NCBI GenBank assembly: GCA_029239545.1
Contig: JARBUQ010000001.1
Location: forward strand, 1-41,093
Direction of reading: 5' to 3'
Source: Paenibacillus sp.
GTDB taxonomy: Bacteria > Bacillota > Bacilli > Paenibacillales > NBRC-103111
DNA: 41,093 nt
The translations under genes were made by a program, and so were the position numbers. Shown here in pieces: positions 11-38,954 of this stretch. Numbering within the stretch: the stretch's first letter is position 1; each line of letters starts with the position of its first letter. A model generated the notes under the pieces. It had not been told where the DNA came from. It saw nothing but the letters and a program-made list of their open reading frames with translations, and did not search any database.

Positions 11-49
11 GCAGGATTCATTTTGTATCCATCGAATTAACTATATAAT
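11..49 (+). promoter_or_regulatory. SigH-type promoter upstream of cas5c (AGGA-N17-GAAT), plus a nearby TATAAT
   Basis: GCAGGA at 11-16 and GAAT at 34-37 with 17 nt between AGGA and GAAT, preceded by an A-tract, as in Bacillus SigH promoters such as spoVG; TATAAT at 44-49. Confidence 0.6.
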
Positions 50-152: not shown

Positions 153-809
153 ATGGGATTTGGAATCAGATTGAAGGTCTGGGGCGAATATGCTTGCTTC
201 ACCAGGCCGGAAATGAAGGTTGAACGAGTCAGCTATGATGTAATGACACCTTCCGCAGCAAGAGGGCTGCTCGAATCCATTCATTGGAAGCCAGCTATCA
301 GATGGGTTATCGATCGTATTCATGTTTTGAATGAAATTCGCTTTGACACGATCAGGAGAAATGAACTAGAAAATAAAATTTCCCCTCGTCTCGTACAAGC
401 GGCTATGAAATCGGGGATGAGCCCTTTATCCCAACTTATTACAGAAGAACGACAGCAAAGAGCAACCTTACTGCTCAGACAGGTTGCCTATGTCATTGAG
501 GCTCATTTTGTCCTCACGGAGAAAGCAGGGGGAGAAGACCTTCCTGAGAAGCATTACGGTATGTTTTTACGGAGAGCCAGGCAGGGGCAGACATTCCATC
601 AACCTTACCTTGGCTGTCGGGAATTTGCTGCCAATTTTGAAATTCTTGAGCCTAAAGATGCATGTCCAAAATCCTATTATTATGAGATTTCTGACAAGGA
701 TTTGGGCTGGATGTTGTGGGACCTTGATTATGAGGAGGAGATGACGCCGCAATTTTTTCGCGCAGCGATGCGCCATGGAATTGTCGAAATTCCAGACCTT
801 AAGCGGTGA
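153..809 (+). CDS. cas5c: Type I-C CRISPR-associated protein Cas5c (Cas5d), crRNA-processing endoribonuclease
   Basis: Motifs VWGEYACFTRPEMKVERVSYDVMTPSAARG, IHWKPAI, EKH and QPYLGCREF; AGGAGG RBS. Confidence 0.97.
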   Translation: MGFGIRLKVWGEYACFTRPEMKVERVSYDVMTPSAARGLLESIHWKPAIRWVIDRIHVLNEIRFDTIRRNELENKISPRLVQAAMKSGMSPLSQLITEERQQRATLLLRQVAYVIEAHFVLTEKAGGEDLPEKHYGMFLRRARQGQTFHQPYLGCREFAANFEILEPKDACPKSYYYEISDKDLGWMLWDLDYEEEMTPQFFRAAMRHGIVEIPDLKR

Positions 810-821: not shown

Positions 822-2645
822 ATGATTATTCAAGCTTTATACGAACGGTACGAGTACCTGCTGCAGGATCCTGCTTCCCCAATATGTGAGCCTTATTTCT
901 CAATAGCCAAAGTGTCCTATGTACTCGAAATTTCAGCTGATGGTGACCTGCTCAAGGTGATAGATCTAAGAAAGCGGCAGGGGAAAAAATGGGTGTCCCT
1001 ATCCCTTCATGTGCCGGAGCAATCAGCAAGGCAATCGAATTTCAAGCCTTATTTCTTATGTGACAAGGTTGAATATTTGCTTGGATACTACATAAGCGAA
1101 GCGAAGCTCGAAGAAGCCAACCGCAAGTTCAGCCTAAGTAGGGAGCTGCATCATTCCATCTTGGCTCATTGTGAGGGAGAGGAGGCTCGTGCGGTTCATT
1201 CGTTTTTCGATCAGTGGAATGCAAGTAAGGTGAGAGAGGTTCGCGCGCTTCAACAGCATATGTCTGGTTTGGATTCAGGTATGGATCAAGTATGCGTGTT
1301 CCGACTGGAAGGCAAGCAATCATTTATTCACGAGCATGACTCTGTTCGACAAGGCTGGATTGCCAGTCAGGAGCAAGCAGACAGCGATTCGGATATGTTA
1401 GGGCAGTGTCTGGTTACAGGCCATTCGAATGTAAGGATCTCACGCATTCACGACAACAAGATCAGGGGAGTCAAAGGGGCACAGCCAAGCGGCGCGGCGG
1501 TTGTCTCTTTCAACAAGCAATCCTTTGATTCCTACAATAAAGAGCAGAGCTACAACGCTCCAATTAGTCGTGAAGTAGCATTCGGGTATACGACAGCGCT
1601 TAATGATCTATTAGCTTCTGATCTGAATTGTATTCGTGATATAGGAGATATGACCATTGTATTCTGGACTACGGGTCCTGAGGCTAAGGCTGCAGAGCAA
1701 GTGTTCAGGGAAGGGATTATTGGCAGCAATCCATATGAGGAATCGGGGCTTGAGGAGTTTACGACGACAACAACAATTGCTGCGATGAGGGATGTGCTGT
1801 TCCACATCAGAAGGGGCAAGCCCATAACCAACATCAGTCTGCCTCCGAATGGAGTCCCCTTCCATGTGCTTGGATTATCGCCTAATAACGCAAGACTCTC
1901 AATCCGATTTCACTGGGAGGGAGGGTTCGGTTCCATGCTGCGGAAGCTGATAGAGCATAGGGCTGACTTGGAGATTGTGCAGCCGGAGCAGTTTCTCTAC
2001 CCCTCAATTTCACGTATATTGGCTGAGACCACCCGCACCGGACTGGATGGCAAGAAATCAGGAGCAGGTGTTTCTCCGGCTCTTGCTGGAGACTTATTCG
2101 CTGCTGTAGTTACTGGAAAGGGATATCCTTACTCCCTCTATGTATCCATTATGAATCGAATCCGAGCCGATCTGAATGTCAGTTCCATTCGCGCCTCAAT
2201 CCTCAAGGCTTACTTGGCCCGGTATGCAAGAATCCATCAGATTGAATCTGTGAAGGAGGTTTTGTCCGTGAGCTTGAATAAGTCCACTAACAGTTCACCT
2301 TATCGATTGGGTCGCTTGTTCGCCGTTCTTGAGCGTACGCAGTTGGAGGCATCAGGGGGATATAACAAGCTGAATACCACGATTAAGAATCGTTATTTCT
2401 CTGCAGCATCTGCAACGCCGGCAGCAGTGTTCCCTATGCTGCTCAAGCTGTCTCAGCATCATATATCCAAAGCCGATTACGGACAGTTCCGGGATCGAGA
2501 GATTCAGGAGATATTGGGGCCGATTGAGGTGTTTCCAATTCGACTGGATATGAATCAGCAAGGGATGTTCATGCTCGGCTACTATCATCAGAAGCAAGAT
2601 TTCTTCTCAGGCAGCACAAAGGCAGAGGTCAAGGTAGCAGAGTAA
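822..2645 (+). CDS. cas8c: Type I-C Cascade large subunit Cas8c (Csd1)
   Basis: MIIQALYERY start, FLCDK, CLVTG, VSFNKQSFDSY, LGLSPNNARLSIRF, YRLGRLFAVLE, FMLGYYHQ; lies between cas5c and cas7c. Confidence 0.96.
   Translation: MIIQALYERYEYLLQDPASPICEPYFSIAKVSYVLEISADGDLLKVIDLRKRQGKKWVSLSLHVPEQSARQSNFKPYFLCDKVEYLLGYYISEAKLEEANRKFSLSRELHHSILAHCEGEEARAVHSFFDQWNASKVREVRALQQHMSGLDSGMDQVCVFRLEGKQSFIHEHDSVRQGWIASQEQADSDSDMLGQCLVTGHSNVRISRIHDNKIRGVKGAQPSGAAVVSFNKQSFDSYNKEQSYNAPISREVAFGYTTALNDLLASDLNCIRDIGDMTIVFWTTGPEAKAAEQVFREGIIGSNPYEESGLEEFTTTTTIAAMRDVLFHIRRGKPITNISLPPNGVPFHVLGLSPNNARLSIRFHWEGGFGSMLRKLIEHRADLEIVQPEQFLYPSISRILAETTRTGLDGKKSGAGVSPALAGDLFAAVVTGKGYPYSLYVSIMNRIRADLNVSSIRASILKAYLARYARIHQIESVKEVLSVSLNKSTNSSPYRLGRLFAVLERTQLEASGGYNKLNTTIKNRYFSAASATPAAVFPMLLKLSQHHISKADYGQFRDREIQEILGPIEVFPIRLDMNQQGMFMLGYYHQKQDFFSGSTKAEVKVAE
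2268..2645 (+). CDS. cas11c: Cas11c small subunit from an internal in-frame start in cas8c (125 aa)
   Basis: AAGGAGG at 2253-2259, 8 nt before an in-frame GTG at 2268, just ahead of the YRLGRLFAVLE domain; internal Cas11 translation is established for type I-C. Confidence 0.8.
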   Translation: MSLNKSTNSSPYRLGRLFAVLERTQLEASGGYNKLNTTIKNRYFSAASATPAAVFPMLLKLSQHHISKADYGQFRDREIQEILGPIEVFPIRLDMNQQGMFMLGYYHQKQDFFSGSTKAEVKVAE

Positions 2646-2724: not shown

Positions 2725-3609
2725 GTGACGGATAAGAGAGACCGGCATCAAGCATTGGATAGACGCTTTGATTTCTCGCTCTTCTTCGATGTCAAGGACG
2801 GTAATCCAAACAGTGATCCAGATGCAGGGAATATGCCGCGGATCGATCCGGAGACCGGGCATGGAATTGTGACGGATGTATGCCTCAAGCGAAAAGTGCG
2901 CAATTATGTAGAAATTGCAAGGGAGCAGGCGGAGGGCTGCAAAATCTATGTGACGGAAGGGGCGGTACTAAACGAGAGGAATCGCATGGCATACCGCTCC
3001 TTACGACCCGCGGATGCAGATAAACCGGAACTGGCCCCCAAGGACCGCACGGAAGCGAAACATTTGACCCAGTGGATGTGCGACAACTTCTATGATATTC
3101 GCACATTCGGAGCGGTTATGAATACACGAGTGAATTGCGGACAAGTGAGAGGACCGGTTCAATTCACCTTCTCTCGCAGTATCGAGCCTATCTTCTCCCA
3201 GGAGGTGACCATTACCCGTCAGGCCGTCACCAAGGAAGGAGAAGACAAGGAGCGCGAGATAGGACGCAAGCACATGATTCCTTATGCGTTATACCGTATG
3301 GATGGTTTTGTATCGGCGTACTTGGCCCGTAAGACCGGCTTCACTGCGGCGGATTTGGATTTGCTGTGGGAAGCTATCTCCAATATGTTCGAGCATGACC
3401 GTTCTGCATCGCGGGGGATGATGACAGTCAGAAAGCTCGTTGTATTCGAGCATGAGACAGGCCTCGGCAATGCGCACGCCCACCACCTGTTCGAGCGGAT
3501 CGCCGCAGAACGGATATCAGAGGGGCCTCCCCGATCCATTCAAGATTACAAGATTCATGTAATGAAGGATCATATTCCTTCGGGTATTAAGATCAGAGAG
3601 ATATGCTAG
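2725..3609 (+). CDS. cas7c: Type I-C Cascade backbone Cas7c (Csd2)
   Basis: DGNPNSDPDAGNMPRID, TDVCLKRKVRNY, FYDIRTFGAVM, GQVRGPVQF, MFEHDRSASRG motifs. Confidence 0.97.
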   Translation: MTDKRDRHQALDRRFDFSLFFDVKDGNPNSDPDAGNMPRIDPETGHGIVTDVCLKRKVRNYVEIAREQAEGCKIYVTEGAVLNERNRMAYRSLRPADADKPELAPKDRTEAKHLTQWMCDNFYDIRTFGAVMNTRVNCGQVRGPVQFTFSRSIEPIFSQEVTITRQAVTKEGEDKEREIGRKHMIPYALYRMDGFVSAYLARKTGFTAADLDLLWEAISNMFEHDRSASRGMMTVRKLVVFEHETGLGNAHAHHLFERIAAERISEGPPRSIQDYKIHVMKDHIPSGIKIREIC

Positions 3610-3620
3610 CTGAACAAACA

Positions 3621-3758
3621 GCCGCTTCATTTTCGGCACCTCGCGTGGGGAACCGCGCGAGGTGCCGAAAGCGGAAGTGTGGATTGAAACCAGGTTATGC
3701 CTAAGTGTATGTATAAACGTATCAAGTCGCTCCCCGTCAGGGGAGTGTGGGTGTTAGA
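3621..3758 (+). CRISPR. Type I-C mini-array: modified repeat 1 (3621-3690), one 35-nt spacer (3691-3725), 3'-degenerate repeat 2 (3726-3758)
   Basis: Repeat 1 ends in GTGTGGATTGAAAC, the I-C 3' end; repeat 2 begins GTCGCTCCCC-GTCA-GGGGAGTGTGG, an I-C hairpin; spacer CAGGTTATGCCTAAGTGTATGTATAAACGTATCAA; starts 11 nt after the cas7 stop. Confidence 0.9.
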
Positions 3759-3769
3759 ATAGCGGAACG

Positions 3770-3807
3770 GCAAAAGCGTCATCCTCTGGAGGATGGCGCT
3801 TTTGCTT
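3770..3807 (+). terminator. Intrinsic terminator closing the cas/mini-array transcript
   Basis: GCAAAAGCGTCATCCTC-TG-GAGGATGGCGCTTTTGC inverted repeat with one G-U pair. Confidence 0.8.
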
Positions 3808-3861
3808 GTGGTCTTAACTTTGAAAGGAGAAGGAAACTCACAACTGAAAAGATGAATCATT

Positions 3862-3899
3862 AGGCGCCTGCTCCCTTACTGGGATCGGGGGCCTTTTTT
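3862..3899 (+). terminator. Second intrinsic terminator-like hairpin
   Basis: AGGCGCCTGCTCCC-TTACT-GGGATCGGGGGCCT imperfect stem followed by a T-run. Confidence 0.6.
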
Positions 3900-4162
3900 G
3901 GTCCTTCAGTCAGGGACTGCCCATTCCTGAGCGGTTCTTTGTGTGCAGATCGAAGGATACAAACATACCGTTCAAGCTTAGGTATTTAGACAAGCAACGG
4001 CTGAGGTGTTCTAGTACAGGCTTAGGTACAGGGGCATGGGTCGAAGTGATGAGGCATAAACCCTTGCCGTACAACGCTTGCAGCTTGTCCATACAGTGTG
4101 CCGGCAAGCTATTTTCATCTTGATTCGGGTTTATTTCGTTCCATTCGATCTACTTGTCCTGT

Positions 4163-4200
4163 GATATAAGATTTTACATCAACTTGGACATATCCTGGAA
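4163..4200 (-). promoter_or_regulatory. Partial protospacer with TTC PAM for the mini-array spacer, upstream of the polysaccharide operon
   Basis: Minus strand reads TTC-CAGGATATGTCCAAGTTGATGTAAAATCTTATATC; 24 of the first 32 positions are identical to the spacer without gaps. Confidence 0.85.
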
Positions 4201-4277
4201 GGATGAGAATAAGATGATAGTGTAAAAGCAATTTTTCAATAGGATCAGAAACAAGTCGAACGAAGGAGAAATCGCGG

Positions 4278-5045
4278 ATGGAATTTGAATTGGGCAGCAT
4301 TGTGAAACTTGTAAGGCGTCGGTTGTGGTTCATCACCACTTTGTCGATTGCTGCGCTTGCTTTTGCCTGGTACATCAGCTACTACGTGTTGAAGCCTGAG
4401 TATGAGGCGACCGCGTCTTTGCTCATCCAAGGAGACAGACAGCAGCAAGCCGTGAATGACATTGTGGCCGGACAAAAGCTGGTTACAACTTACGGTGAGA
4501 TTATTCGAAGCAACCGGATCGCGGAAGAGGTGGTGAAACGTCTGGATCTCGACATGACACCGCAAAAGCTGCTTACCAAAATCAAGACAAGGACGAGCAG
4601 TGAATCATTGCTCACGACGGTAATCGCCACAGATTCCGATCCAAAGAGGGCGAGTGATATCGCAAATGGTTTTGCCGAGACGTTCTATGGGAATATCCGG
4701 TCCATCATGGGTGTGGACAATATTCTGTTCCTGGATCAAGCCAAGGTGCCGTCCGAGCCCATTCCGGTTACACCCAAGCCATTCTTCAACATGGTGGTTG
4801 CCTTCGGACTTGCTCTTGTCGCGGGAATCGGAATATCGATTGTGCGGGAGATGATGGACAAAACCGTCAGCAGTACAAAGGACATCGAGCTTGAGCTGCA
4901 GCTGCCGTTATTAGGCACGGTCGGGAAGCTGAAGCCGCGCAAATGGAGGCGCAAACTGCGCAGACATAAATCCTTAGAAGGGGAGAGCGAATATGAGAAA
5001 GAGGATACCTCGATTGTACTGCCAGGCCGAACCGAAATCAGCTAA
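4278..5045 (+). CDS. Wzz/CapA/EpsA-type chain-length regulator (tyrosine-kinase modulator)
   Basis: N-terminal TM, PEYEATASLLI, PVTPKP followed by a second TM, LPLLGTV; AAGGAG RBS. Confidence 0.92.
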   Translation: MEFELGSIVKLVRRRLWFITTLSIAALAFAWYISYYVLKPEYEATASLLIQGDRQQQAVNDIVAGQKLVTTYGEIIRSNRIAEEVVKRLDLDMTPQKLLTKIKTRTSSESLLTTVIATDSDPKRASDIANGFAETFYGNIRSIMGVDNILFLDQAKVPSEPIPVTPKPFFNMVVAFGLALVAGIGISIVREMMDKTVSSTKDIELELQLPLLGTVGKLKPRKWRRKLRRHKSLEGESEYEKEDTSIVLPGRTEIS

Positions 5046-5721
5046 TGCGGAGCTGTTCCGTGCGATTCGGACTAATATTCGCTATACCCGGGTAGGCGGC
5101 GAGATCCGCTCGATATTGGTCACAAGCTCTCTTCCCGGGGAGGGCAAATCGACAGTAGCCGTTAACCTCGCTGTCGCTATAGCGGAAACCGGAAGAACGG
5201 TGCTGCTCATTGATGGGGACCTGCGCACTCCCGCGGTTCATGAGGCCTTTGACCTGCCTAACATTACCGGCTTAACAAGCATCCTCGTGGATCAGGCCAA
5301 GCTGGCGGATTGCGTGTATGAGATCAGGGATTCGCCAGGACTATGTGTTCTGCCCTCTGGCCCGTTATCTCCGAATCCTGCTGAACTGCTCGGCTCTAAT
5401 GGGATGATGCATCTGCTCGCTGAGCTTCATGACAAGTGGGACACCTTGATTATCGATGGCTCGTCGGTTCTGCTGCCTTCCTCAGATGCGTTGATCCTGT
5501 CCTCTATGACAGAGGGAGTGCTGCTTGTCGTTCAATCCGGCAAAGTGCTGCAGAAGCATACGAACAGTGCCAAGCTATTGCTGGAAAAGCAAGGCGCCCA
5601 CCTGTTAGGAGCCGTGTTGAACAGAAAAGGCCGGAGCAGCAAAAAAGGCGATAACAAAAGCTATGCGATCAGTGGAGAAGACTTCGCATCGTGGGCTTCC
5701 TCGGCAGGGAAGGACAGATGA
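4993..5721 (+). CDS. CpsD/CapB/EpsB-family bacterial tyrosine kinase
   Basis: AELFRAIRTNI, Walker A SSLPGEGKST, LLIDGDLR, PNPAELLGS, LLGAVLN. Confidence 0.92.
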   Translation: MRKRIPRLYCQAEPKSANAELFRAIRTNIRYTRVGGEIRSILVTSSLPGEGKSTVAVNLAVAIAETGRTVLLIDGDLRTPAVHEAFDLPNITGLTSILVDQAKLADCVYEIRDSPGLCVLPSGPLSPNPAELLGSNGMMHLLAELHDKWDTLIIDGSSVLLPSSDALILSSMTEGVLLVVQSGKVLQKHTNSAKLLLEKQGAHLLGAVLNRKGRSSKKGDNKSYAISGEDFASWASSAGKDR

Positions 5722-6956
5722 CCTTTCTGGCTATCCGTTATTTGCTCGGCAGCATCGTCTATGCGGGAGCTCAGTTCGTTATTGTGAGTTTGTTGAACAA
5801 ATTCGGCTCTACTGAGCACATCGGACAATATGCACTCGGACTCGCCATCACGGCTCCAATCTTCATGCTGTCGCATCTGCACCTGCGTTCAGTCTGGATC
5901 GTGAATTCGTCCGGCAAGCATACGTTCGGATCCTACATCGGTCTTCGCTGGCTAACGAGTGCCGCTGCGTTCTCCATCACGGTTGGCATAGCACTCTTAG
6001 GCGGATTCGACCGTAATACGAGTCTGGTAATTGTCCTGATCAGCACGTATCGATTTATTGAATCGATCAGCGACTTGCTGCTGGGAGTTTGTCAGAAGCA
6101 GGAGCAGCTGGATTCGATAACCTTCTCCAGAATATCCAAAGGCATCATATCCACGATTAGTTTCATTCTGGTATACATACCGACACAAAGCCTTATTCTG
6201 TCGTTGCTCACCATGATTATCGGGTGGTTCTGTATTATGCTCGGGTACGATTTCCGCAAGGCACGCCAACTGGTAGCAACCCGGCCTGTGTTCGCTTATA
6301 AGCAATTAAAACCGCTCGTTCGCGCAAGCGCTCCGCTGGGCATCGTGCTTGCGCTCATGTCCTTGAATGCGAATATCCCTCATTATTCGATTGCTTACTT
6401 CAGGGGACAGCATGATCTTGGGGTGTACGCTTCACTCGCTTATATGATTGTAGCTTGCAACGTGGTAGTAACGGCACTTGGCGAGGCGTACACACCACGT
6501 CTGGCAAAATGGTTCACCGAAGGCCGGTACTCCCTATTTGTCCGTTTACTAGTCCGGATGATCACGATGGGGGTTCTGCTTGGCGGTTTGGGATGTATAG
6601 GGGGATGGGCATTTGGAACGGAGCTGCTCACCTTGTTATACAATCGCGAGCTTGCTGCCGAGATGGAGGTGTTCTTATGGATGCTGCTCTCGACCTTACT
6701 CATCTTTGTTTCATCATTCCTGTGGTATGGCATCACGGCAACCCGAACCTTCAGCCTGCAAATTCCCCTTTTTCTGTGTACTGCGGGGAGTAATGCGGCG
6801 GCCTGTCTCCTGCTTGTTCCGCGTTATGGCTTGGTGGGAGCTGCTGCCGGCACGATGGTTTCCTTGCTTGTCCAGACGGGAGGGAGTGTGCTGTTGTTGA
6901 TTTACGCAATGAATAAGGAAAAAAGAAGAGTAAATGGGGAAGCAGCAGCGGCATAA
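5718..6956 (+). CDS. Wzx-type polysaccharide flippase
   Basis: Many TM segments, GQYALGLAITAPIF, LGVYASLAY, LVPRYGLVGAA; ATG overlaps the upstream stop (ATGA). Confidence 0.88.
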   Translation: MTFLAIRYLLGSIVYAGAQFVIVSLLNKFGSTEHIGQYALGLAITAPIFMLSHLHLRSVWIVNSSGKHTFGSYIGLRWLTSAAAFSITVGIALLGGFDRNTSLVIVLISTYRFIESISDLLLGVCQKQEQLDSITFSRISKGIISTISFILVYIPTQSLILSLLTMIIGWFCIMLGYDFRKARQLVATRPVFAYKQLKPLVRASAPLGIVLALMSLNANIPHYSIAYFRGQHDLGVYASLAYMIVACNVVVTALGEAYTPRLAKWFTEGRYSLFVRLLVRMITMGVLLGGLGCIGGWAFGTELLTLLYNRELAAEMEVFLWMLLSTLLIFVSSFLWYGITATRTFSLQIPLFLCTAGSNAAACLLLVPRYGLVGAAAGTMVSLLVQTGGSVLLLIYAMNKEKRRVNGEAAAA

Positions 6957-6990
6957 CAGCTGGTGCAGCTTCCTCGAATTGGGGGATAAG

Positions 6991-8265
6991 ATGTCGTCCT
7001 TGTATTTAGCATGGAACACGCTTCGCAAAAATGATACAAAACGGATCAAATTCACAACCGGATCGTTATTCCAGATTGCGGTTGCAGGGTATGTCGTATG
7101 CTTGCCTGCTCAATTCGATTTTGGAGGTGCATTCCGCTTTGCCCCCTCAGACATGTTCCTGCTTATCGGGCTGTCCGCAGCGGGCATGCAGCTCAAGATC
7201 GATCGCCGCATGTTCAGCTCCTGGCACTGGGGGATGCTGCTGATCTTCTTATTCGCATCCTTCGTAGCGATGTGGCAGAACGGGTTTATATCCAAATATG
7301 CCTTGCTGCAAAAGGATTTTGGATTCGTTCTGCTCCTGCTTACCTACATCATGCTGACTCAAGCGGTGGATAGCTGGGATCGATTGTACCGTTTGCTGAG
7401 GATATTCCTGCTCAGCGTTCTGTGGATGAACGCAACTGCATTATTCGCCTTCTTCAGCGGTGTGCGTGTTCCCTTCATGGTGCAGGATGGCCGGTTATCC
7501 GGCATGTTGATTGATCCGAATGCATACGGCGGTCTACTCGTTACGGCCTTTGCTGTCCATATTATGACGAGCGGCGGCTCGAGACGGCTGCTCAGCGGAT
7601 GGATGAGCCAGCTTGCAACCTTGACGCTGTCAGGTGGAATTGTGATAACCTTCTCACGCTCCTCCTGGATCGGGCTTTTCCTCATCTTAATGACACTCTC
7701 GATTGTGAAGCCGGCTCGCCTGATCAAGGTAGGACTTGGCTTTGCAGCAGCCTTCACGGTGCTGCTTATATACAAGGGCCCGGCTTATCTGGACATCCTG
7801 AGTTCGATGGCGAGTCGGCCTTCGCAGATTCAATCACGGCTTGATATTCTCACCAAGGCGTTCGAGTGGATCGCCCAGAGCCCGCTTTTTGGCATCGGTC
7901 TGGGGACTTACAATCTCAATCTCGGAATCATCATTCACAATACGCCCATGTGGTTTATAACAGAATTCGGCTTATTGGGTTTCCTTGTGTATGGCGGGTT
8001 CATGGTTTGGTTTTTCTTCATCGGCATTCGCTCATACCAAGCAGCTATGCCTGTGCATCGTCCGGTTATATTAGCTTTTCTGTTGTCACATGCCGCGATG
8101 ATTGGTTTGTCTATGGGCATTGAGGCGCTGTTTCAACGGTACTGGTGGTTCATGATGGCCCTGAATGCAGCATGCATTCGACTTACGGCTTTACCGGGCA
8201 GCGATGTAACGCAAGCTCAAGCAATTTCTACTCATGAAGGGAGGGAAGATCTGCATGCAAGATAG
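6991..8265 (+). CDS. Wzy/O-antigen ligase-family polymerase
   Basis: Polytopic membrane protein with RLSGMLIDPNAYG, TFSRSSW, PLFGIGLG, HNTPMWFITEFGLLG; start chosen after a GGGGG RBS (ORF is open from 6934). Confidence 0.85.
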   Translation: MSSLYLAWNTLRKNDTKRIKFTTGSLFQIAVAGYVVCLPAQFDFGGAFRFAPSDMFLLIGLSAAGMQLKIDRRMFSSWHWGMLLIFLFASFVAMWQNGFISKYALLQKDFGFVLLLLTYIMLTQAVDSWDRLYRLLRIFLLSVLWMNATALFAFFSGVRVPFMVQDGRLSGMLIDPNAYGGLLVTAFAVHIMTSGGSRRLLSGWMSQLATLTLSGGIVITFSRSSWIGLFLILMTLSIVKPARLIKVGLGFAAAFTVLLIYKGPAYLDILSSMASRPSQIQSRLDILTKAFEWIAQSPLFGIGLGTYNLNLGIIIHNTPMWFITEFGLLGFLVYGGFMVWFFFIGIRSYQAAMPVHRPVILAFLLSHAAMIGLSMGIEALFQRYWWFMMALNAACIRLTALPGSDVTQAQAISTHEGREDLHAR

Positions 8266-9490
8266 GACTGGCGTTCCACTTAAGGCAGCATGGGTAGCAT
8301 CGATCTATAGACACTTTACCGGTTTCCATATTCCTTATATGAAGCTGCTGCAGCAGAAGGGCTGCGAGGTGCACGCCTATGCGCAATCCGGTGAAGGACG
8401 GGAGCAGCTCGAAGCGATAGGAGTAATCTGTCACGATGTCCCGATTTGCCGCAGTCCGCTTCGCAAGGAGAACCTGAAAGCTCTCGCGATGCTAACGGAC
8501 AGCTTCCGCCAAGAGAAGTTCCAGCTCGTACATGTCCACACGCCGGTTGCTGCACTTCTGGGGCGAATCGCAGCGAGAAGGGCCGGCGTACCTTGTACGA
8601 TTTATACGGCTCATGGCTTCCATTTTCACAAGGGGGCACCGCTGCTGAACTGGCTCCTCTATTATCCGCTCGAAAGAATGATGGCGCGATGGACGGATAT
8701 CTTGATCACTATGAATGGCGAGGATTGGGAGCGGGCCTTGAACTTCAAGGTACAGGGGAAGGTGGTTTACGTCCCGGGTGTAGGGATTGATCTTGAAGCC
8801 TATGGGGGGAAGCTGGAGGACAATCCGAACGGAAAACGCGATGCCAGGCGCAAGCTGAACCTGCCACATCTTCAGAATCAGACTCGGGATGCTTACATCG
8901 TGCTCTGTATAGCGGAATTGAATGCGAACAAGAATCAGAGGCAGTTGATCGAGGCATTAGGAGAAGCGGGTACTCAAGGAAGCGACATCCACCTCGTCCT
9001 AGCGGGAACGGGGCATCTGGAAACAGCGCTGATCTCACTGGCAGAGCGGCTGGGTGTGCAGGATCGGGTGCATATGCTCGGATACAGACGAGACATCCCT
9101 GATCTGCTGCAAGCTTGTGATGCGGTAGCCCTTTTATCCCATCGCGAAGGGCTGCCGCGAGCGATTATGGAGGCTATGGCGGCGGGTAAGCCAGTGCTGG
9201 GCACCCATATTCGCGGCATTCGCGACCTGGTGGCCGAAGGCGTCTCAGGCATTCTGGTTCCTGTCGGCGATAACACTGCGACAGCGGATGCCCTTATCCG
9301 TTTGCGTAATCAGCCTGCGCTGTCGGGCAGAATGGGAGCCGCAGGTCGTGCGCGATTAGTTGACTACAGCTTGCCATCCGTGATGCAGGAGATGGATGTG
9401 ATTTATTCCGATGCGCTGCGAATAAAAGCAGAAGATGAAGCGCCCGCTGCCCAGCCCGTATCGGTAGTGCCACGATCAGGAGAGCATTAA
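8255..9490 (+). CDS. Glycosyltransferase family 4 (EpsD-like)
   Basis: HVHTPVAA, YTAHGFHF, GYRRDIPDLL, EGLPRAIMEAMAAGKPV. Confidence 0.93.
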   Translation: MQDRTGVPLKAAWVASIYRHFTGFHIPYMKLLQQKGCEVHAYAQSGEGREQLEAIGVICHDVPICRSPLRKENLKALAMLTDSFRQEKFQLVHVHTPVAALLGRIAARRAGVPCTIYTAHGFHFHKGAPLLNWLLYYPLERMMARWTDILITMNGEDWERALNFKVQGKVVYVPGVGIDLEAYGGKLEDNPNGKRDARRKLNLPHLQNQTRDAYIVLCIAELNANKNQRQLIEALGEAGTQGSDIHLVLAGTGHLETALISLAERLGVQDRVHMLGYRRDIPDLLQACDAVALLSHREGLPRAIMEAMAAGKPVLGTHIRGIRDLVAEGVSGILVPVGDNTATADALIRLRNQPALSGRMGAAGRARLVDYSLPSVMQEMDVIYSDALRIKAEDEAPAAQPVSVVPRSGEH

Positions 9491-9610
9491 TCTGTTTTAG
9501 GATCCGAGCTTCTGTCCAATTCTTGTCACTTGTAAGCGGCGTGCCAACATGCAGTCTATGGACGCCTGGTTGTTGTTGTGGAAATCATTCGGTCGATGAG
9601 GGTGAAAGAA

Positions 9611-11554
9611 ATGGTCATTAAGACTCGTCTAGTGCGCTTGGCTTTGTTGGATGCGGCAATTGTGGCAGCTTCTCTGTGGTTCGTATTCTCGCTTCGGTTT
9701 GAGTTCGATATCCCTGTGATGTACTTGCACATGCTCCCCTATGCGATTTTGATCCATGTAACGGTGCACACTATTTGCTTCTTCGGGTTTCGAGTGTATC
9801 ACAGCATATGGCGCTACACCGGTATCGAGGAGATGGTATTGCTGCTAAAAGTAAGTGCGCTGACGTTCGCAGGTGTGCTTGCCGCGAATATGCTTGCGCA
9901 TCTTATCGTGCCTTCTTATCGTCTGCCGCTGTCGATTTATTCTGCCGCAGGTTATGTATTCCTCGGTATCGCAGGTTCACGCATGATCAGTCGCCTGCTG
10001 GGCGACCAATTCATGAGAACGAAGGAGCCGCTGACCGAGGGAGCTAAGCTGTTGATCATTGGAGCGGGCAAGGCAGGAATCCTGATCGCCAAGGATATCA
10101 AACATTCTAGATTCAAATTCATGACCCCCGTTGCTTTTGTAGATGATGATCCGGCTAAGCAAAATTTGGAGATTATGGGTTTGCCCATCGTCGGTACACG
10201 CAGTCATATCCCTGAAGCAGTTAAGCGGATGAATATTGACTATATCGTAATTGCTCTCCCAGCTGCCTCTCGCCAGGCGGTAACGGACATTCTCGAAATC
10301 TGCAAATCTACTAAAGCTCAGATCAAGCTGCTGCCCAGCATGTCGGATATTTTGAACGGCAAAATGTCGGTCAATATGATTCGCGAGGTGTCTGTGAACG
10401 ATCTGTTAGGACGGGCGCCCGTTGAGATTAATGGCAAGGAAATCCGGGAAAGCCTGGAGCATGAAACCGTTCTGATAACCGGCGCTGGAGGCTCGATAGG
10501 CTCGGAGCTATGCCGTCAGGTAGCGATGTACAAACCGAAGGAGCTGCTGCTTGTCGGCCACGGGGAGAACAGTATTTATTTGATCGAGGGCGAGCTTCGC
10601 AGGCTGTTCCCGAGTCAGTCCGTACATGCCATTATCGCAGATATTCAGGACATATCCCGAATTGAAAGTGTATTTCACAGCTATCGGCCTACGCTAGTCT
10701 ACCATGCTGCCGCGCATAAGCACGTTCCGCTTATGGAGACGAATCCGGCTGAAGCCATCAAGAATAATGTCCTCGGCACACGTAATGTTGCGGCGGCGAG
10801 TGACAAGTACGGGGTCAAACGTTTCATCCTCATCTCCTCCGATAAGGCGGTCAATCCTACAAGCATCATGGGAGCGACCAAGCGCATTGCTGAGATGATC
10901 GTCCATGATATGAATCTTTCCAGTAAAACAGCCTTCGCGGCCGTTCGTTTCGGCAACGTGCTTGGCAGTCGGGGCAGTGTAATTCCACTGTTTCAGAAGC
11001 AGATTGAGGCAGGGGGGCCTGTAACCGTGACTCACATGGATATGGTCCGCTACTTCATGACCATTCCGGAAGCGGTACAGCTCGTTATTCAGGCCAGTGT
11101 GCTAGTGCAAGGCGGCGAAGTATTCGTGCTGGATATGGGCAAGCCGGTTCGCATATATGATTTGGCCAAAGACTTGATCCGCTTGTCGGGACTTGAGCCG
11201 GAGAAGGATATTCCGATTGTGGTCACTGGCATTCGGCCAGGGGAGAAGCTGTACGAAGAGCTGCTTACGGAAGAGGAAGGGCTTATGGTTACGACCAACG
11301 ATCGGATCATGGTCAGCCGACCCGCAAATATTCCGCGTTCGGAGCTCATGATGGTTCTCGGGATTCTGGAGAATCTGACGAAGAGGTATGAAGTTGCAGC
11401 AGGCAGCTATCAAGTGAAAAAACTGCTCAAGCAGCTCGTTCCAAGCTACCTCGGTGTGCAGGAGGAGCCTCCATCTGTGGAGCCAGATCGTGATCGGGAG
11501 CGCGAACGCGAACAACGTGAACGGGTGAAGGTAGAGCTGCATGCTGGAACATGA
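9611..11554 (+). CDS. CapD/EpsC/PglF-family UDP-GlcNAc 4,6-dehydratase
   Basis: N-terminal TMs, GAGKAG, TGAGGSIGSELCRQ, HAAAHKHVP, SSDKAVNP, VRFGNVLGSRGSV. Confidence 0.95.
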   Translation: MVIKTRLVRLALLDAAIVAASLWFVFSLRFEFDIPVMYLHMLPYAILIHVTVHTICFFGFRVYHSIWRYTGIEEMVLLLKVSALTFAGVLAANMLAHLIVPSYRLPLSIYSAAGYVFLGIAGSRMISRLLGDQFMRTKEPLTEGAKLLIIGAGKAGILIAKDIKHSRFKFMTPVAFVDDDPAKQNLEIMGLPIVGTRSHIPEAVKRMNIDYIVIALPAASRQAVTDILEICKSTKAQIKLLPSMSDILNGKMSVNMIREVSVNDLLGRAPVEINGKEIRESLEHETVLITGAGGSIGSELCRQVAMYKPKELLLVGHGENSIYLIEGELRRLFPSQSVHAIIADIQDISRIESVFHSYRPTLVYHAAAHKHVPLMETNPAEAIKNNVLGTRNVAAASDKYGVKRFILISSDKAVNPTSIMGATKRIAEMIVHDMNLSSKTAFAAVRFGNVLGSRGSVIPLFQKQIEAGGPVTVTHMDMVRYFMTIPEAVQLVIQASVLVQGGEVFVLDMGKPVRIYDLAKDLIRLSGLEPEKDIPIVVTGIRPGEKLYEELLTEEEGLMVTTNDRIMVSRPANIPRSELMMVLGILENLTKRYEVAAGSYQVKKLLKQLVPSYLGVQEEPPSVEPDRDREREREQRERVKVELHAGT

Positions 11555-11587
11555 CTCGTGCAGCATGCGCTTAAGCAGGAGGCGGTC

Positions 11588-12688
11588 ATGAGCAAACGAT
11601 GGAAATTCAGTGTGATCGGGCTGATTATCTTGTTGGTTGGCGTGGGGAGCATGCTGTACGGATTAAGCCCGCAGCGGCATTTTCGCTCGGGTGCTCCGAA
11701 GGCACTGGCCATGCCGCAGCCGATTCCGCACGATTGGGGCAAGAGCGAATACGTGTCGGATGATCAAGCTACAGAGGAGGACAACGAGCTGGATGAGCCC
11801 CTTGCTCGCTCTGACGAATCAGCAGTCCCATCCGATCAGACGCACACCAGCCATACTACATCAATAGCAGCTGCACCAACCCCGGCTGCTTCAACGAATT
11901 CCAAATCGACCCACTCAGCCAATTCCTTCAATGTCGTATTGATTGGAACAGATACGTGGGGAGAAGAGGGCTCGCGGGCAGATACGATTATGGTCGTCCA
12001 TGTGATGCCGAACAGCCGCAAGGTCAATATCGTATCGATTCCAAGAGACACCAGGGTGTACGTCCAGGGCGTAGGTTACACGAAGATCAACCATGCCCAC
12101 AGCGTAGGCGAAGCTAAGGGCGGCAATCATCAAGGAACGCTGACGCTCGCGCAGGCGGTCAGTGATTTCCTGAACATTCCGGTCCATCACTACATCAAGA
12201 CGAATTTTGCCGGAGTCAGCAGCTTCATAGATAAGATTGGCGGAATTGAGATGTACATCGAGCAGGACGTTACGATTACACCGGAGATCGTGATTCGGCA
12301 AGGTGACCAGCATCTGGATGGACAGCATGCTTTGTTCCTGGCACGGGAGAGGTATTCGGTTCCAGGGGGCGATTTTGGTCGTCAGATCGCGCAATTCCGC
12401 ATTGTTCGGGCCGTAGCCAGACAATTGCTGAAGCCGGAGCATCTCCCCGATCTTGCTGCCCTTATTAGCAGCGGGAGGCAGGATTTGATGGACACAAGCT
12501 TCAGCGATTCGGACTTAATCAGCCTGGCCTGGTTGTTCAAGGGGATGGACACGGAAGACTTTGCATATGAGCAAATACCTGGGAAAGACAGCAGCGGGCC
12601 TGATCCCCTCGTCGGAAGCGATGTGTATTACTGGAGCGCAGATCCGGTGCAGGTCCGGTCAATTCGGGAACGGATGTTTAACTCATAG
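11588..12688 (+). CDS. LCP (LytR-CpsA-Psr) family glycopolymer transferase
   Basis: Single N-terminal TM, RADTIMV, SIPRDTRV, KINHAH, ARERY, GDFGR; AGGAGG RBS. Confidence 0.92.
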   Translation: MSKRWKFSVIGLIILLVGVGSMLYGLSPQRHFRSGAPKALAMPQPIPHDWGKSEYVSDDQATEEDNELDEPLARSDESAVPSDQTHTSHTTSIAAAPTPAASTNSKSTHSANSFNVVLIGTDTWGEEGSRADTIMVVHVMPNSRKVNIVSIPRDTRVYVQGVGYTKINHAHSVGEAKGGNHQGTLTLAQAVSDFLNIPVHHYIKTNFAGVSSFIDKIGGIEMYIEQDVTITPEIVIRQGDQHLDGQHALFLARERYSVPGGDFGRQIAQFRIVRAVARQLLKPEHLPDLAALISSGRQDLMDTSFSDSDLISLAWLFKGMDTEDFAYEQIPGKDSSGPDPLVGSDVYYWSADPVQVRSIRERMFNS

Positions 12689-12728
12689 CGGCAACATGGT
12701 CACATGTAAAAGGTTAAGGAGGAGTTCG

Positions 12729-13361
12729 ATGTACCGTATGCTCAAGCGAAGCTGCGATATTGTGGGAGCCATTATCTTATTATGTATTTTCTCACCCGTT
12801 ATGGCTGTAGTGGCCCTGCTCATTCGCATTAAATTAGGAAGCCCGATTTTATTCAAGCAGCAAAGACCCGGTTTGGCAGAGCGTCCCTTTGAGATTTATA
12901 AGTTCCGTACAATGGCCGTCCTGTATGGACCGGATGGCGAGCTCTTATCCGATGAGTGCAGGTATAGCAAATTCGGGGGAGTGATCCGCAGATTGAGCCT
13001 CGATGAGCTGCCGCAGTTCCTCAACGTATTGAAAGGGGATATGAGCCTGATTGGACCGCGCCCGCTGCTCATGAGGTACACCCCTTATTATTCCGAGAGG
13101 GAACGGCTTCGGTTCACAGTAAGGCCAGGTGTTACTGGACTCGCCCAAGTATCAGGACGCAATAAACTGTCATGGAATGACCGGCTATCACTGGATGTAA
13201 CCTATGTGGAACAGCTTAGCTTCCAACAGGATTTTCGCATTCTATGGAAGACCGTACAGAAAGTTGTTCGTCAGGAGGATGTAGTTGAGAATCCCAGCCT
13301 GCATGACCTTCCGTTGGATGCCCACAGGCTGCAGCTGCAGGCGAGGGAGGGCTCCGTATGA
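12729..13361 (+). CDS. Priming phosphoglycosyl transferase (EpsL/PglC family)
   Basis: KRSCDI, FKQQRPG, YKFRTM, SLDELPQFLNVLKGDMSLIGPRP, RPGVTGLAQV; AAGGAGGAG RBS. Confidence 0.95.
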   Translation: MYRMLKRSCDIVGAIILLCIFSPVMAVVALLIRIKLGSPILFKQQRPGLAERPFEIYKFRTMAVLYGPDGELLSDECRYSKFGGVIRRLSLDELPQFLNVLKGDMSLIGPRPLLMRYTPYYSERERLRFTVRPGVTGLAQVSGRNKLSWNDRLSLDVTYVEQLSFQQDFRILWKTVQKVVRQEDVVENPSLHDLPLDAHRLQLQAREGSV

Positions 13362-14164
13362 AGGTGCAGTTCCGCCCGCTCGACTCTGACAAAGATATTC
13401 AGAAGGCATGCCGCTTATTGAGGGACTCCATGCCAGAGAGAGAATACAACCGAACGATCTTCTCCTGTTCCGGGTATCCGCAATATTTGCGGGCCGCGTT
13501 CTGGTGCCGCACCCACGCAGCAACTATGCTGATTGGCGCTTATGACGGGGAGCATCTGATCGGCTTCGCGGAATGGAGGAGACTGGAAACTCAGTTCGTG
13601 CTCAACAATCTGAACGTGGATGCGGCTTACCGCAGCTATGGGATAGGGAGCCGCCTGATTGCATACGGGGAAGAGCTTGCTCTAAAGGAAGGGGTAGGGA
13701 CGCTTACACTCGATGTGTTTGCCTGGAATGAGCATGCTTATGAATGGTATAAGAGGCTGGGCTTCGTGGAGACCAATCGCACTTATTGGTATGAGAGAAG
13801 TCTTTATTCGAGGGGGAACTCACCAGTTATGGACAGTGTGCCTCCATACATAGTAGAGGACTTTCCGATGGCGGAGGCCCATCATGCCGCGTACGGCTTC
13901 TCTTCGCTTCGAATCAGAATGCAGCGAGGGACCATACAAGTCGGGCGACTGGGGGCATCGTATTACCGGCTTCAGACACAGAACGGAGATTGGGATTGGA
14001 ATGGCTCGCTTATAGCGGCTTTAACAGATCTGGATCCAGAGCGCAGATTACTGCTGTTATCTCCCGATGCCGGCTTGGCTCAATGCGACAGTGGACTGGT
14101 TATGATCAGCGAAAGCGTGCGGATGAACAAGAAGCTGGAGGAACGGGCGGTGTATTATGGATAA
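13358..14164 (+). CDS. GNAT-family N-acetyltransferase with C-terminal extension
   Basis: VDAAYRSYGIGSRL acyl-CoA motif, N..AYEWYKRLGF. Confidence 0.8.
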   Translation: MKVQFRPLDSDKDIQKACRLLRDSMPEREYNRTIFSCSGYPQYLRAAFWCRTHAATMLIGAYDGEHLIGFAEWRRLETQFVLNNLNVDAAYRSYGIGSRLIAYGEELALKEGVGTLTLDVFAWNEHAYEWYKRLGFVETNRTYWYERSLYSRGNSPVMDSVPPYIVEDFPMAEAHHAAYGFSSLRIRMQRGTIQVGRLGASYYRLQTQNGDWDWNGSLIAALTDLDPERRLLLLSPDAGLAQCDSGLVMISESVRMNKKLEERAVYYG

Positions 14165-15260
14165 CTTCGAGGTGCTGGATAGCTCTAATAAAAGGGACTG
14201 GGATCATTATCTGAGTTTGATGACAGACAAGGATATATATTTCACCTCTGAATATTGCCGGTTATACGAGATTGAGGGCGAGCAGAAGGCGGAGCTGTTC
14301 GTTTACAAGCGGGACGGGAGGTTGATCCTGTATCCGTACCTGCTTCGTTCGATTCATAATCTTGAAGTTATGCGTGAGCTGGGTATAGGGGGAGATTGGT
14401 ATGATATCAGCACCCCTTACGGCTATGGGGGCCCCATTACCGATGCACCATCAGGACCGGAGCGGGAAGCCTTATTCCGCAGCTTCAATGAAGTATTCAC
14501 TGCTTATTGCCGGGAGCGCTGCATTATAACAGAATTCGTAAGGTTTCATTCCTTGCTGGACAATGTGTTTGATTATAGTGCAGTTGAGTCGCAATTAAGC
14601 CGCAATACAGCATTCATTGATTTGACTGTTGGCTCCGAATCAGAGCTGATCCAGCGGTATTGCCGTAATCATAAGACGAATATTCGCAAGTGGAGCTCGT
14701 CTCCTCTAACGATTCGTCATTCAAGTCAGTTCGCTGATCGAATGGACGCTTTTACCCAGCTGTACTATGGTACCCTTCAGGATTTGCAGGCAGACTCCTT
14801 TTATTATTTTCCGCGGAGCTTCCTGGAGGACACACGCCGCTTGCTGGAAGGCCGTTTGGAGCTGTTTGAAGTGATGCACGGGGAGACAGCTATAGCGGCC
14901 TGCCTGATTATGCATGAATTTCCGCGAATGCACTATCATTTGAGCGGTTGGAATCGGGACTATCTGCATTGGGCACCAACCAAGATGCTCATTCATGCCG
15001 CCGCGCTCTGGGGAATGGAAGCAGGCTTCGAGAAGTTCCATCTGGGCGGGGGGTATAGCGGCAATGACAGCCTGTATCAATTCAAGAAAGGCTTTGGCAC
15101 GAACAATGAGCTTGACTATTATTTGGGCAAACGCGTGTTTTTCCCTGAGCTGTATGAGCAAATCCGGACACAGGGACCCCTGGCTGTACAGGATAGCGCG
15201 TATTTTCCCATTTATCGACATCCACAATTCAGGACAGGTTCGGTCCCTTCACCCCATTAA
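14157..15260 (+). CDS. FemAB-like double-GNAT acyl/aminoacyl transferase
   Basis: DISTPYGYGGP, EFVRFH, YYFPRSF, HYHLSG, FHLGGG, LYQFKKGF. Confidence 0.8.
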   Translation: MDNFEVLDSSNKRDWDHYLSLMTDKDIYFTSEYCRLYEIEGEQKAELFVYKRDGRLILYPYLLRSIHNLEVMRELGIGGDWYDISTPYGYGGPITDAPSGPEREALFRSFNEVFTAYCRERCIITEFVRFHSLLDNVFDYSAVESQLSRNTAFIDLTVGSESELIQRYCRNHKTNIRKWSSSPLTIRHSSQFADRMDAFTQLYYGTLQDLQADSFYYFPRSFLEDTRRLLEGRLELFEVMHGETAIAACLIMHEFPRMHYHLSGWNRDYLHWAPTKMLIHAAALWGMEAGFEKFHLGGGYSGNDSLYQFKKGFGTNNELDYYLGKRVFFPELYEQIRTQGPLAVQDSAYFPIYRHPQFRTGSVPSPH

Positions 15261-15294
15261 ATGAATGAATAATCGGAAGGAATGTGAGCAGCAC

Positions 15295-16473
15295 ATGGTA
15301 GACAACAGCCAGCAGCCACGCATTTATTTGTCCCCCCCTCATATGAGCGGACGGGAAAAGGAATATATGAACGATGCTTATGATTCCAACTGGATTGCTC
15401 CTCTTGGGCCTCATGTGGATGCTTTCGAAAGGGAAATGGCGGAATATACCGGAGCCGCAGGAGCGGTGGCCCTGTCATCAGGAACGGCTGCTATTCATCT
15501 GGCGCTGCGTCTTGCAGGCGTAGGACCGGGTGATCGTGTCATTTGTTCGACGTTAACCTTTGTCGCGAGTGCCAACCCTATTCTGTATGCAGGGGCGGTG
15601 CCTGTATTCGTTGATTCGGAGCCGGAGACGTGGAACATGTGTCCCCTTACGTTCGAGCGGGCTTGCAGGGAAATGAGTGATCAGGGCTTTCCGGTTAAAG
15701 CAGCCATAGTCGTTAATCTGTACGGACAAAGTGCGGATCTGCAGTCCATCATAGAGGTTTGTGAACGATACGGAATCGTCCTTATAGAAGATGCAGCTGA
15801 GTCTCTGGGGGCTACATATAACGGGAAGGCAAGCGGGACATGGGGGCGTTACGGGATCTATTCCTTCAACGGGAACAAGATTATTACAACGTCAGGCGGA
15901 GGAATGCTTGTATCCGACGATCTTGAAGCCCTCGAGCAGGCGAGGTTCTGGGCTACTCAAGCAAGAGATGCAGCAGCCCATTACCAGCATTCCCAGATGG
16001 GATATAACTATCGGCTAAGCAATCTGTTAGCGGCGGTTGGTCGCGGGCAGTTGGAGCAGCTGGACGATCGTGTCCAGGCCAGACGCCGTATCTTCGAGAG
16101 ATATAGGGACAGGCTAGGGGAGATCCAGGGCATTCATTTCATGCCAGAAGCACCGTTTGGCCGCAGTACTCGCTGGTTGAGCGCTATTACGATTGATGAA
16201 GGGGAAGTGGGAGTATCGGCCGTACCGATTCTGGCCAGCTTGGCCCATCATAATATTGAAGCAAGGTCTGTGTGGAAGCCGCTCCATCTGCAGCCGTTGT
16301 TCGCCAGATCCACCTATTTCCCCTATTTTGAGGGATACAGTGTAAGTGATCAATTGTTCGCAAATGGCATTTGCCTGCCCTCCGGAAGCTCCTTGACGGA
16401 GGAAGAGCAGGCGCGTGTCATTGAGACAATCGAGACTTGCATTCAGAATTGGAAAAGTGTTATACGCCGTTAA
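15295..16473 (+). CDS. DegT/DnrJ/EryC1/StrS PLP aminotransferase (EpsN/PglE-like)
   Basis: IYLSPPHM, SSGTAAIHLAL, IEDAAESLG, SFNGNKIITTSGGG, GYNYRLSN, LPSGS; alternative start at 15265. Confidence 0.95.
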   Translation: MVDNSQQPRIYLSPPHMSGREKEYMNDAYDSNWIAPLGPHVDAFEREMAEYTGAAGAVALSSGTAAIHLALRLAGVGPGDRVICSTLTFVASANPILYAGAVPVFVDSEPETWNMCPLTFERACREMSDQGFPVKAAIVVNLYGQSADLQSIIEVCERYGIVLIEDAAESLGATYNGKASGTWGRYGIYSFNGNKIITTSGGGMLVSDDLEALEQARFWATQARDAAAHYQHSQMGYNYRLSNLLAAVGRGQLEQLDDRVQARRRIFERYRDRLGEIQGIHFMPEAPFGRSTRWLSAITIDEGEVGVSAVPILASLAHHNIEARSVWKPLHLQPLFARSTYFPYFEGYSVSDQLFANGICLPSGSSLTEEEQARVIETIETCIQNWKSVIRR

Positions 16474-18121: not shown

Positions 18122-18153
18122 AATCAATCACTCCTTTTTCTATAATTCTTGTA

Positions 18154-22192: not shown

Positions 22193-22195
22193 CAG

Positions 22196-22846: not shown

Positions 22847-22861
22847 GAGGGAGGCAATCAT

Positions 22862-23683: not shown

Positions 23684-23691
23684 GAAGTGCG

Positions 23692-25517: not shown

Positions 25518-25540
25518 TATAAAAGGAGGGTAATAGGCCC

Positions 25541-25927: not shown

Positions 25928-25960
25928 TGTTATTAAACCAAGAGAGAGGAGCAACAACAT

Positions 25961-38648: not shown

Positions 38649-38954
38649 GCACGGCATCCTCCTATTTCGTCCTGCTTCTTACTGAGCCCAATAAGTCGGA
38701 GAAGCCGTGATCGGTCGGCCCCAGCTTGTTGAGCGGTAGCGTCAGTTTGACATCGCTGTAAGCTGCTTAAGGTAACCGTTCGCTATAAATAAACTTTTGT
38801 TCAATTTATATAGGTCTATGTTTATAGGTCTTATGTAGTAGTTTCGACATAAACCGATCTGTTTCCTGCAATTCACCCTTATGAGAATTAGGACTACGGA
38901 CGCAACACAAGAAAACCCTGACTGGAAGTTCTGCCAGTCACTATCTACGTTCAT

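Follow-up and report, generated by a model that had tools for sequence, protein, structure and literature searches.

Organization of the locus

The window, by which we mean the whole 41,093-nt stretch of DNA analysed here, begins contig C11 of G000, a genome assembled to 4.33 Mb and 69% complete. Along it, cas5c, cas8c and cas7c are followed by a one-spacer mini-array and then by an 11-gene polysaccharide operon of the Wzx/Wzy pathway (Table 1). Together with an internal cas11c, the start of which is predicted within cas8c, the three cas genes have the composition of a type I-C Cascade, and the closest named relatives of the Cas8c are those of Paenibacillus. Alignment places His44, Lys133 and His134 of the window's Cas5c at the positions of the catalytic triad described for Cas5c (PMC8524198). 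No cas3, cas4, cas1, cas2 or multi-spacer array was found within the window.

Table 1. Coordinates of the features discussed in the text (positions refer to the window unless a contig is named)
Feature	Position	Strand	Basis or remark
Sigma-H-like promoter motif AGGA-17-GAAT, cas5c leader	11..37	+	Predicted promoter
cas5c, intact	153..809	+	TIGR01876, E 1e-54; alignment
cas8c, intact	822..2645	+	TIGR01863, E 1e-128
Predicted internal Cas11c start inside cas8c	2268..2645	+	GAAGGAGG ribosome site and GTG
cas7c, intact	2725..3609	+	TIGR02589, E 3e-102; no cas4, cas1 or cas2 after it
5′ type I-C repeat	3621..3690	+	Stem base and 11-nt handle intact (fold)
Single guide (spacer)	3691..3725	+	Pairs with minus strand 4197-4163
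Degenerate 3′ repeat	3726..3760	+	Hairpin retained, 3′ tail decayed
Strong hairpin, likely terminator	3770..3805	+	After the mini-array; similar hairpins after the guide in G001 and G002
Target site	4163..4197	-	Guide positions 6-11 lie over the conserved GACATA at 4187-4192
TTC PAM	4198..4200	-	Same register in 4/4 guide-bearing loci
Promoter-like block: GACATA, 15 nt, AATAAGAT	4187..4215	+	Counterpart in 14/14 orthologous operons
11-gene Wzx/Wzy surface-polysaccharide operon	4278..16473	+	Profile matches
Protein of 1,258 aa; carbohydrate-binding and heparinase II/III-like domains	L079:4904-8680	-	Between guide and target

The element first described as an array contains one spacer, here called the guide, flanked by a 5′ repeat into which a palindrome has been inserted and by a 3′ repeat that is degenerate. 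The insertion, of ~44 nt (about 3629-3672), replaces the loop of the 5′ repeat, which is uninterrupted in the metagenome contig L079 and in relatives from runs X1, X6 and X7. GC-rich palindromes of one family occur in the window's genome (C211:422-460, C298:2655-2674 and C339:4083-4115), with one copy in a CRISPR repeat loop. A search of Rfam returned nothing at its gathering score, and neither Pfam nor PADLOC matched the open reading frames at 3627-3860 and 4115-4375.

L079 has a leader with 81% identity to the 152-nt leader of cas5c, and the gene upstream of it is a divergent MOSC gene instead of cas3; a cas3 gene just off the end of the window's contig is therefore unlikely. The motif AGG(A/G)-17/18-GAAT is present in the cas5c leaders and in the leader of the guide of G002 (four were found by pattern, that of G001 by eye), and mapped SigH promoters listed in Table 3 of PMC7438776 have the same form. 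The SigH-like leaders suggest expression at the end of growth, and the growth-phase switch proposed in the preliminary description thereby gains indirect support.

Related loci and the absence of cas3

Four guide-bearing loci were compared: the window, the two other genomes of the genus (G001 and G002), both of which have the system, and the metagenome contig L079. The layout of G001 is that of the window, with 166 bp between the repeat and the target site. Guide and site are 5.5 kb apart in L079, the interval being occupied by the heparinase II/III-like gene of Table 1; this gene is preceded by tandem repeats of ~45 bp. G002 is arranged differently: an isolated guide unit, headed by a promoter-like leader of its own, precedes the operon, and the Cascade genes are found in convergent orientation at the operon's far end. 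L079 was the only new locus recovered by a repeat-plus-guide pattern, which was built from the other guides and found 32 loci, 3 of them with the system; the remaining 29 are array spacers or unrelated. Searching for related loci with Cas8c as the query confirmed none. Run X1 yielded a near-identical contig with two differences over 3400-4274, neither in guide or target, which possibly comes from the source sample and is thus not independent. In a strain from run X3, 13 substitutions fall in 4014-4162, and 4163-4240 is unchanged.

All four Cascades consist of cas5c, cas8c and cas7c only, and the ribosome site and start of Cas11c are conserved in each. No match for cas3, cas4 or cas1 adjoins the three related Cascades (G001, G002 and L079), whereas cas3 adjoins 11 of the 12 other type I-C loci of the comparison set, the twelfth of which ends at a contig edge. 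The next genes upstream of cas5c in the related loci encode MOSC, DUF559-like and AraC proteins, and the window itself begins at a contig end. Beside these Cascades we found no linked Tn7-like transposase genes, within them no added nuclease domain, and linked to the loci no gene for a sigma factor or activator. The cas genes are evidently under purifying selection, with dN/dS of 0.03-0.09 where it could be computed; synonymous differences between the loci, at 0.59-0.83 per site, are saturated.

It should be noted that in G002 no cas3 was detected even well beyond the neighborhood of the locus. In this genome, which is 98% complete and of which all but 3,404 bases were searched, no cas3 exceeded the cut-off and no cas1 was found; there is one cas7, and the one exact type I-C repeat end genome-wide is the guide's own. 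At least in G002, then, the Cascade seems to serve no other purpose. Neither cas3 nor cas1 turned up in the window's own genome, a result that leaves room for a cas3 elsewhere at 69% completeness. Two canonical type I-C repeats lie at a contig end of this genome (G000:C322:1-100, L036), followed by nitrate/nitrite-assimilation-like genes; no cas gene was found on C322, and the rest of that array and any cas3 may be unassembled.

FastTree phylogenies of Cas8c (63 rows) and Cas7 (15 rows) place the window, L079 and G001 in one clade (support 100 and 99) and G002 elsewhere, whereas the Wzy tree makes G002 the sister of G001 (96). The simplest reading, we infer, is that G002 swapped its Cascade for an unrelated one that likewise lacks cas3. 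G001 has, in addition, a separate complete type I-C system, the Cas7 of which is 36% identical to that of the window. In the Cas5c of the guide-bearing locus of G001 (L037:1867-2544), Leu replaces the catalytic Lys that is called invariant in PMC8524198, and this Cas5c may depend on the host's other Cas5c.

The guide and its target in the window

The preliminary description aligned the guide without gaps to the minus strand at 4197-4163, beside a TTC at 4200-4198. That description is exact; the mismatches at positions 5, 10, 12, 17, 18, 24, 27, 29 and 33-35 were reproduced, and the chance of such a match, put at about 1e-8 per position, agrees with our tail extrapolation. Guide and site are 440 bp apart, and the site lies 81-115 bp upstream of the polysaccharide operon. 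Over ~8.66 million positions on both strands, the site is the guide's best non-self match, at 24 of 32 positions, followed by a match of 22; the next match beside a TTC reaches 20. Thirty shuffled guides gave best matches of 21-23, or 19-21 beside TTC. By tail extrapolation, such a match with its PAM is expected 0.002 times genome-wide and 5e-7 times within 1 kb. The assembled genome holds no better PAM-flanked target, and the longest seed-only runs elsewhere in the assembly comprise 7 paired positions with poor distal pairing. A CreR-type target in the cas promoter was considered and rejected, since the best match in the cas5c leader is 18 of 32, without TTC.

No foreign source of the guide was found: none of the phage and plasmid records reached 80% coverage of the guide, the best E-value being about 1, and a degenerate guide pattern had no matches among viral contigs. 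The guide likely originated as a self spacer.

Conservation and covariation of pairing

Conservation of the pairing in relatives, with covariation of spacer and target, had been named beforehand as a check on the proposed regulation, and it is seen in all three related guide-bearing loci. Each of the four guides pairs with its own site. Guide and site covary at positions 3 and 15 in G002 and at position 21 in G001, so that the covariation consists of three compensatory columns, two of them on the G002 branch, among four loci that are kin.

The mismatches, moreover, cluster at every sixth position. Cas7 flips out every sixth base of the guide, not only at positions 6 and 12 but also further on (18, 24 and 30). 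Between the window and L079, four of the five guide differences fall at positions 12, 18, 24 and 30 (p 7e-4, which overstates the significance because the loci are kin). Within positions 1-16 of the four loci, 54 of 56 cells are paired outside positions 6 and 12, compared with 3 of 8 at these two positions (Fisher p 1.4e-4, with the same reservation); positions 6 and 12 are the bases described as flipped by Cas7 in 10.1101/2024.12.27.630466. The match is partial, lies beside a PAM in an upstream region close to the guide, and tolerates mismatches at every sixth base, as is characteristic of a crRNA-like regulatory RNA (crlRNA), and crlRNA anatomy (a lone or degenerate repeat, an intact stem base and an 11-nt handle) is found in all four loci.

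This pattern bears on the idea that the locus is an accident, in which cas3 was lost under pressure from a self-derived spacer, leaving a neutral relic or a chance match. The likely self origin of the guide and the degenerate 3′ repeat would fit such a history. A neutral relic is nevertheless unlikely, because the pairing pattern has been kept despite saturated synonymous divergence, with compensatory changes and a six-base periodicity; the cas genes are under purifying selection, and the Cascade of G002, of separate origin, is also without cas3. In our opinion, the covariation largely refutes this reading, to which we give almost no weight.

The copy in the window is the most eroded of the four: compared with L079 it has lost the pairs at positions 5, 10 and 27, and it carries the palindrome in its first repeat. 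The concern voiced in the preliminary description over the seed mismatch at position 5 was justified, since the window alone of the four loci has unpaired positions in 1-16 outside 6 and 12; both unpaired cells of the 56 (positions 5 and 10) are its own. Any brake in the window's lineage is probably weaker than in its relatives. One may go further and suppose that the regulator is real in the lineage and has decayed in the window's genome, the guide being unprocessed or the binding too weak, and the change at position 5 is indeed common to a second strain (run X3). Several observations speak against so complete a decay. None of the cas reading frames is broken, and both the Cas5c triad and the start of Cas11c are preserved; the branch lengths of the window and L079 are alike (0.087 and 0.095 for Cas7, 0.24 and 0.19 for Cas8c); the stem base and handle of the repeat survive the insertion, and changes of the loop did not block the Cas5c of B. 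halodurans (PMC8524198); and pairing is retained at positions 19-23, 25-26 and 28-32, except for 29. We consider full decay unlikely, though it is the strongest of the competing readings.

The polysaccharide operon and its promoter-like block

The 11-gene polysaccharide operon reported downstream of the site was confirmed as a Wzx/Wzy pathway. It encodes a chain-length protein, a tyrosine kinase, a flippase, a polymerase, a GT4 glycosyltransferase and a CapD-like dehydratase, as well as an LCP ligase, a phosphoglycosyl transferase, two acetyltransferase-fold proteins and a DegT aminotransferase. Close orthologues of its Wzy are present in 13 of 401 genomes, the window's own included. Over the stretches covered, the order of the operon is the same in G001, G002 and the operons without a guide, with the exception that an LCP match is missing in genome G015. 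There are ten guide-less operons (no guide unit within the 16-20 kb examined), and no Cas7 was found in nine of these ten genomes. The guide-less operon of G323 has the PAM, and this genome has an unrelated complete type I-C locus; no guide matching the operon site was found in it.

A pectate-lyase-fold gene at 16481-18127 (minus strand) faces the operon in the window and does so too in each of the 11 orthologous clusters examined to this point; genes for a GalE-like epimerase and an acyltransferase come next. The product of the pectate-lyase-fold gene is possibly a depolymerase or modifier of the polymer. Farther along, the window contains a complete cluster for ectoine/hydroxyectoine uptake and synthesis (ehuBCDA and ectABCD; 20619-26836) and, on the minus strand at 32855-38657, a protein of 1,710 aa in which Ser/Thr kinase, AAA, GAF and histidine kinase domains are fused, together with a LuxR-type response regulator.

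The guide covers a conserved cis element. All 14 orthologous operons have, 77-127 nt upstream of their start, a block composed of GACATA, 15-16 nt and (A/C)ATA. The PAM lies inside the spacer of this block in all four guide-bearing loci, as against one of the ten guide-less operons. Because the guide-less operons keep the same block, the guide appears to be aimed at a pre-existing element; for the same reason, conservation of the target alone is no evidence for the guide. Target conservation is partly due to the promoter-like element, and the specific evidence is confined to the conservation of the guide and to the PAM. The interval between site and start is short, with little conservation outside the ribosome site, and no conserved toxin RNA or open reading frame of the kind that would mark a CreTA system was found there, although it might conceal a cryptic RNA.

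The covered element is most likely a promoter. A sigma-E promoter has the consensus ATA, 15-16 nt, xATAxxxT, and spoIVA is under sigma-E control in B. subtilis. The block in the four loci and in G015 has the form of the spoIVA promoter, a form found in 17 of 19 spoIVA leaders. The sigma-E-like form is seen at the homologous site in none of nine operons of family f16, in 1 of 13 spoIID windows (a set placed by HMM match starts, which may miss the promoter) and in 1 of 20 SASP windows. A genome-wide scan with the sigma-E-like motif, which is weak, gave five matches, and a sigma-70 scan found no promoters. The strict form of the block pattern occurred in 1 of 401 genomes; it missed the window and G002 and is too strict for counting. 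A separate near-palindrome (TGATACAAAATGTATCA-like) occurs upstream of the wzz paralogues in L090, L092, L093, L097, L102, L105, L110 and L113; it recurs upstream of many other polysaccharide operons of the family, with a weaker copy after the promoter block of G002, and is probably the operator of a protein regulator.

A Cascade bound at this element might instead activate or gate the operon, say if it dislodged a protein repressor from GACATA, since an element present in all 14 operons could be a promoter -35 or an operator. The two-part promoter spacing of the element and its likeness to the host's spoIVA promoter argue against activation, as do the type I precedents in the literature examined, all of which are repressive, and the want of a linked sigma factor or activator gene. 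We regard activation as improbable.

Proposed mechanism

Taken together, these results favor, with a probability of about 0.7, a reading in which a type I-C Cascade without Cas3 has been co-opted for RNA-guided repression of a surface-polysaccharide promoter. Cascade-guided control of the operon promoter, the central proposal of the preliminary description, is supported by the conserved and covarying pairing, by the failure of the guide to match phage or plasmid records and by the lack of adjoining cas3 and adaptation genes in all four loci. The sigma-H-like promoter would transcribe cas5c, cas8c (with cas11c), cas7c and the mini-array, probably at entry into stationary phase. Cas5c would then cut at the base of the 5′ repeat stem and leave an 11-nt handle, while internal Cas11c would be made from cas8c. 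The assembled Cascade would read TTC and form a partial R-loop over the GACATA element, so that RNA polymerase would be blocked without cutting of the DNA, and the synthesis of a wall-anchored polysaccharide would be turned down for as long as Cascade is present. A precedent exists in type I-C, where a 16-bp match with a mismatch at position 6 and a TTC PAM gave 21-fold repression (10.1101/2024.12.27.630466); the geometry of guide and site in G002 is that very case.

Relation to known systems

The closest counterpart is CRISIS, that is, type I-C crRNA-like RNAs that repress the promoters of defence genes (10.1101/2024.12.27.630466). As presented in that preprint, CRISIS shares with our loci a type I-C Cascade, a lone or degenerate repeat unit, an 11-nt handle, a TTC PAM, incomplete pairing that leaves positions 6 and 12 mismatched, and a target just upstream of the regulated genes. 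It differs in that its genes are immune systems located between cas3 and cas5c of complete loci. In our loci no cas3 adjoins, the guide follows cas7c except in G002, where it stands apart, and a polysaccharide operon without a convincing PADLOC match is targeted. The distance from a CRISIS site down to the start site is 37-46 bp, whereas the site described here appears to overlap the promoter block. Polysaccharide, capsule and Paenibacillus have no occurrences in the CRISIS main text. In genome G032 (L039, minus strand near 13589), a lone type I-C repeat between cas3 and cas5c resembles CreR and CRISIS; the 20 kb of L039 contain no cas1 or cas4 match.

The similarity to CRISIS raises the question of a defence sensor, the other role proposed in the preliminary description, in which anti-CRISPRs or competing crRNAs would lift the repression and surface armour would be turned on against phage. 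The RNA anatomy and PAM are as in CRISIS guides, CreR and CRISIS circuits are described as responding to anti-CRISPRs, G001 has a separate complete type I-C system, the window's genome has an array remnant, and a sensor would be compatible with repression. Nevertheless, no cas3, cas1 or array was detected in G002, and this role is weaker for want of anything found there for a sensor to guard. The operon, furthermore, has one weak ATPase match to PADLOC among 14 proteins and nothing else, and the same operon is present in the ten guide-less genomes, nine of them without a Cas7 found. Such a sensor strikes us as slightly less probable even than activation.

The CreA/CreR mini-CRISPRs (10.1101/2023.03.10.532045; 10.1101/2023.03.03.530964) likewise combine a degenerate one-spacer array with partial pairing that directs Cascade to a promoter, but their targets, as described there, are cas or toxin promoters within immune loci that still function. 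TldR and dCas12f-sigmaE (PMC13472631) are also RNA-guided DNA binders that have lost cleavage and control host genes; these are single-protein derivatives of TnpB/Cas12 with a dead RuvC, whereas the system considered here is a multi-subunit class 1 complex without its separate nuclease gene. Control of host genes other than cas by a CRISPR-like RNA is known for Francisella scaRNA-Cas9 and for the Haloferax volcanii RNA acting on zinc-transporter genes (10.1101/2023.03.03.530964); unlike these, the Cascade here appears, at least in G002, to be without another job. Finally, the type I-C CAST and the HNH-bearing I-E2 and I-F4 systems, as classified in PMC12669027, share a Cascade without Cas3; in our loci, by contrast, no transposase genes were seen adjoining and no added nuclease domain was detected.

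In the literature searched, which lay largely outside subscription journals, no Cas3-less Cascade dedicated to a polysaccharide or other non-defence operon was found. Term searches in the text of the CRISIS preprint, the mini-array survey, the phage crlRNA preprint and the 2025 classification likewise showed none. A Myxococcus paper, going by its title, is said to link CRISPR to exopolysaccharide. Two supplements of PMC10120712 contain no match for Paenibacillus or polysaccharide, and the large locus tables of that paper or the CRISIS data could list loci of this kind.

Significance

The mode of repression is already known from CreA/CreR and CRISIS; what appears to be new, and is well supported by comparative evidence, is a dedicated Cas3-less Cascade directed to a non-defence operon. 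In the literature examined, Cascade-guided repression serves immunity, its targets being cas genes, toxins and defence cassettes. Full exaptation as a transcription factor has been shown for single-protein derivatives of TnpB/Cas12, and the present system, if our reading is true, is its class 1 counterpart. We think it somewhat better than an even chance that the domestication is complete, such that a Cas3-less Cascade and its co-evolving guide act as a host transcription factor and form a growth-phase- or sporulation-linked polysaccharide switch. On this view the switch would be of such value that one lineage exchanged its Cascade for an unrelated one, once more lacking cas3, and retains no other CRISPR element.

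The covarying pairs of guide and target, together with the guide-less sister operons, provide ready-made controls. The finding also suggests a rule for searches: Cas3-less Cascades with lone repeats may be regulators rather than decayed immune loci. If true, it represents a natural form of CRISPRi of a cell-envelope pathway, in which a CRISPR immune machine would have been turned into a regulator of host genes.
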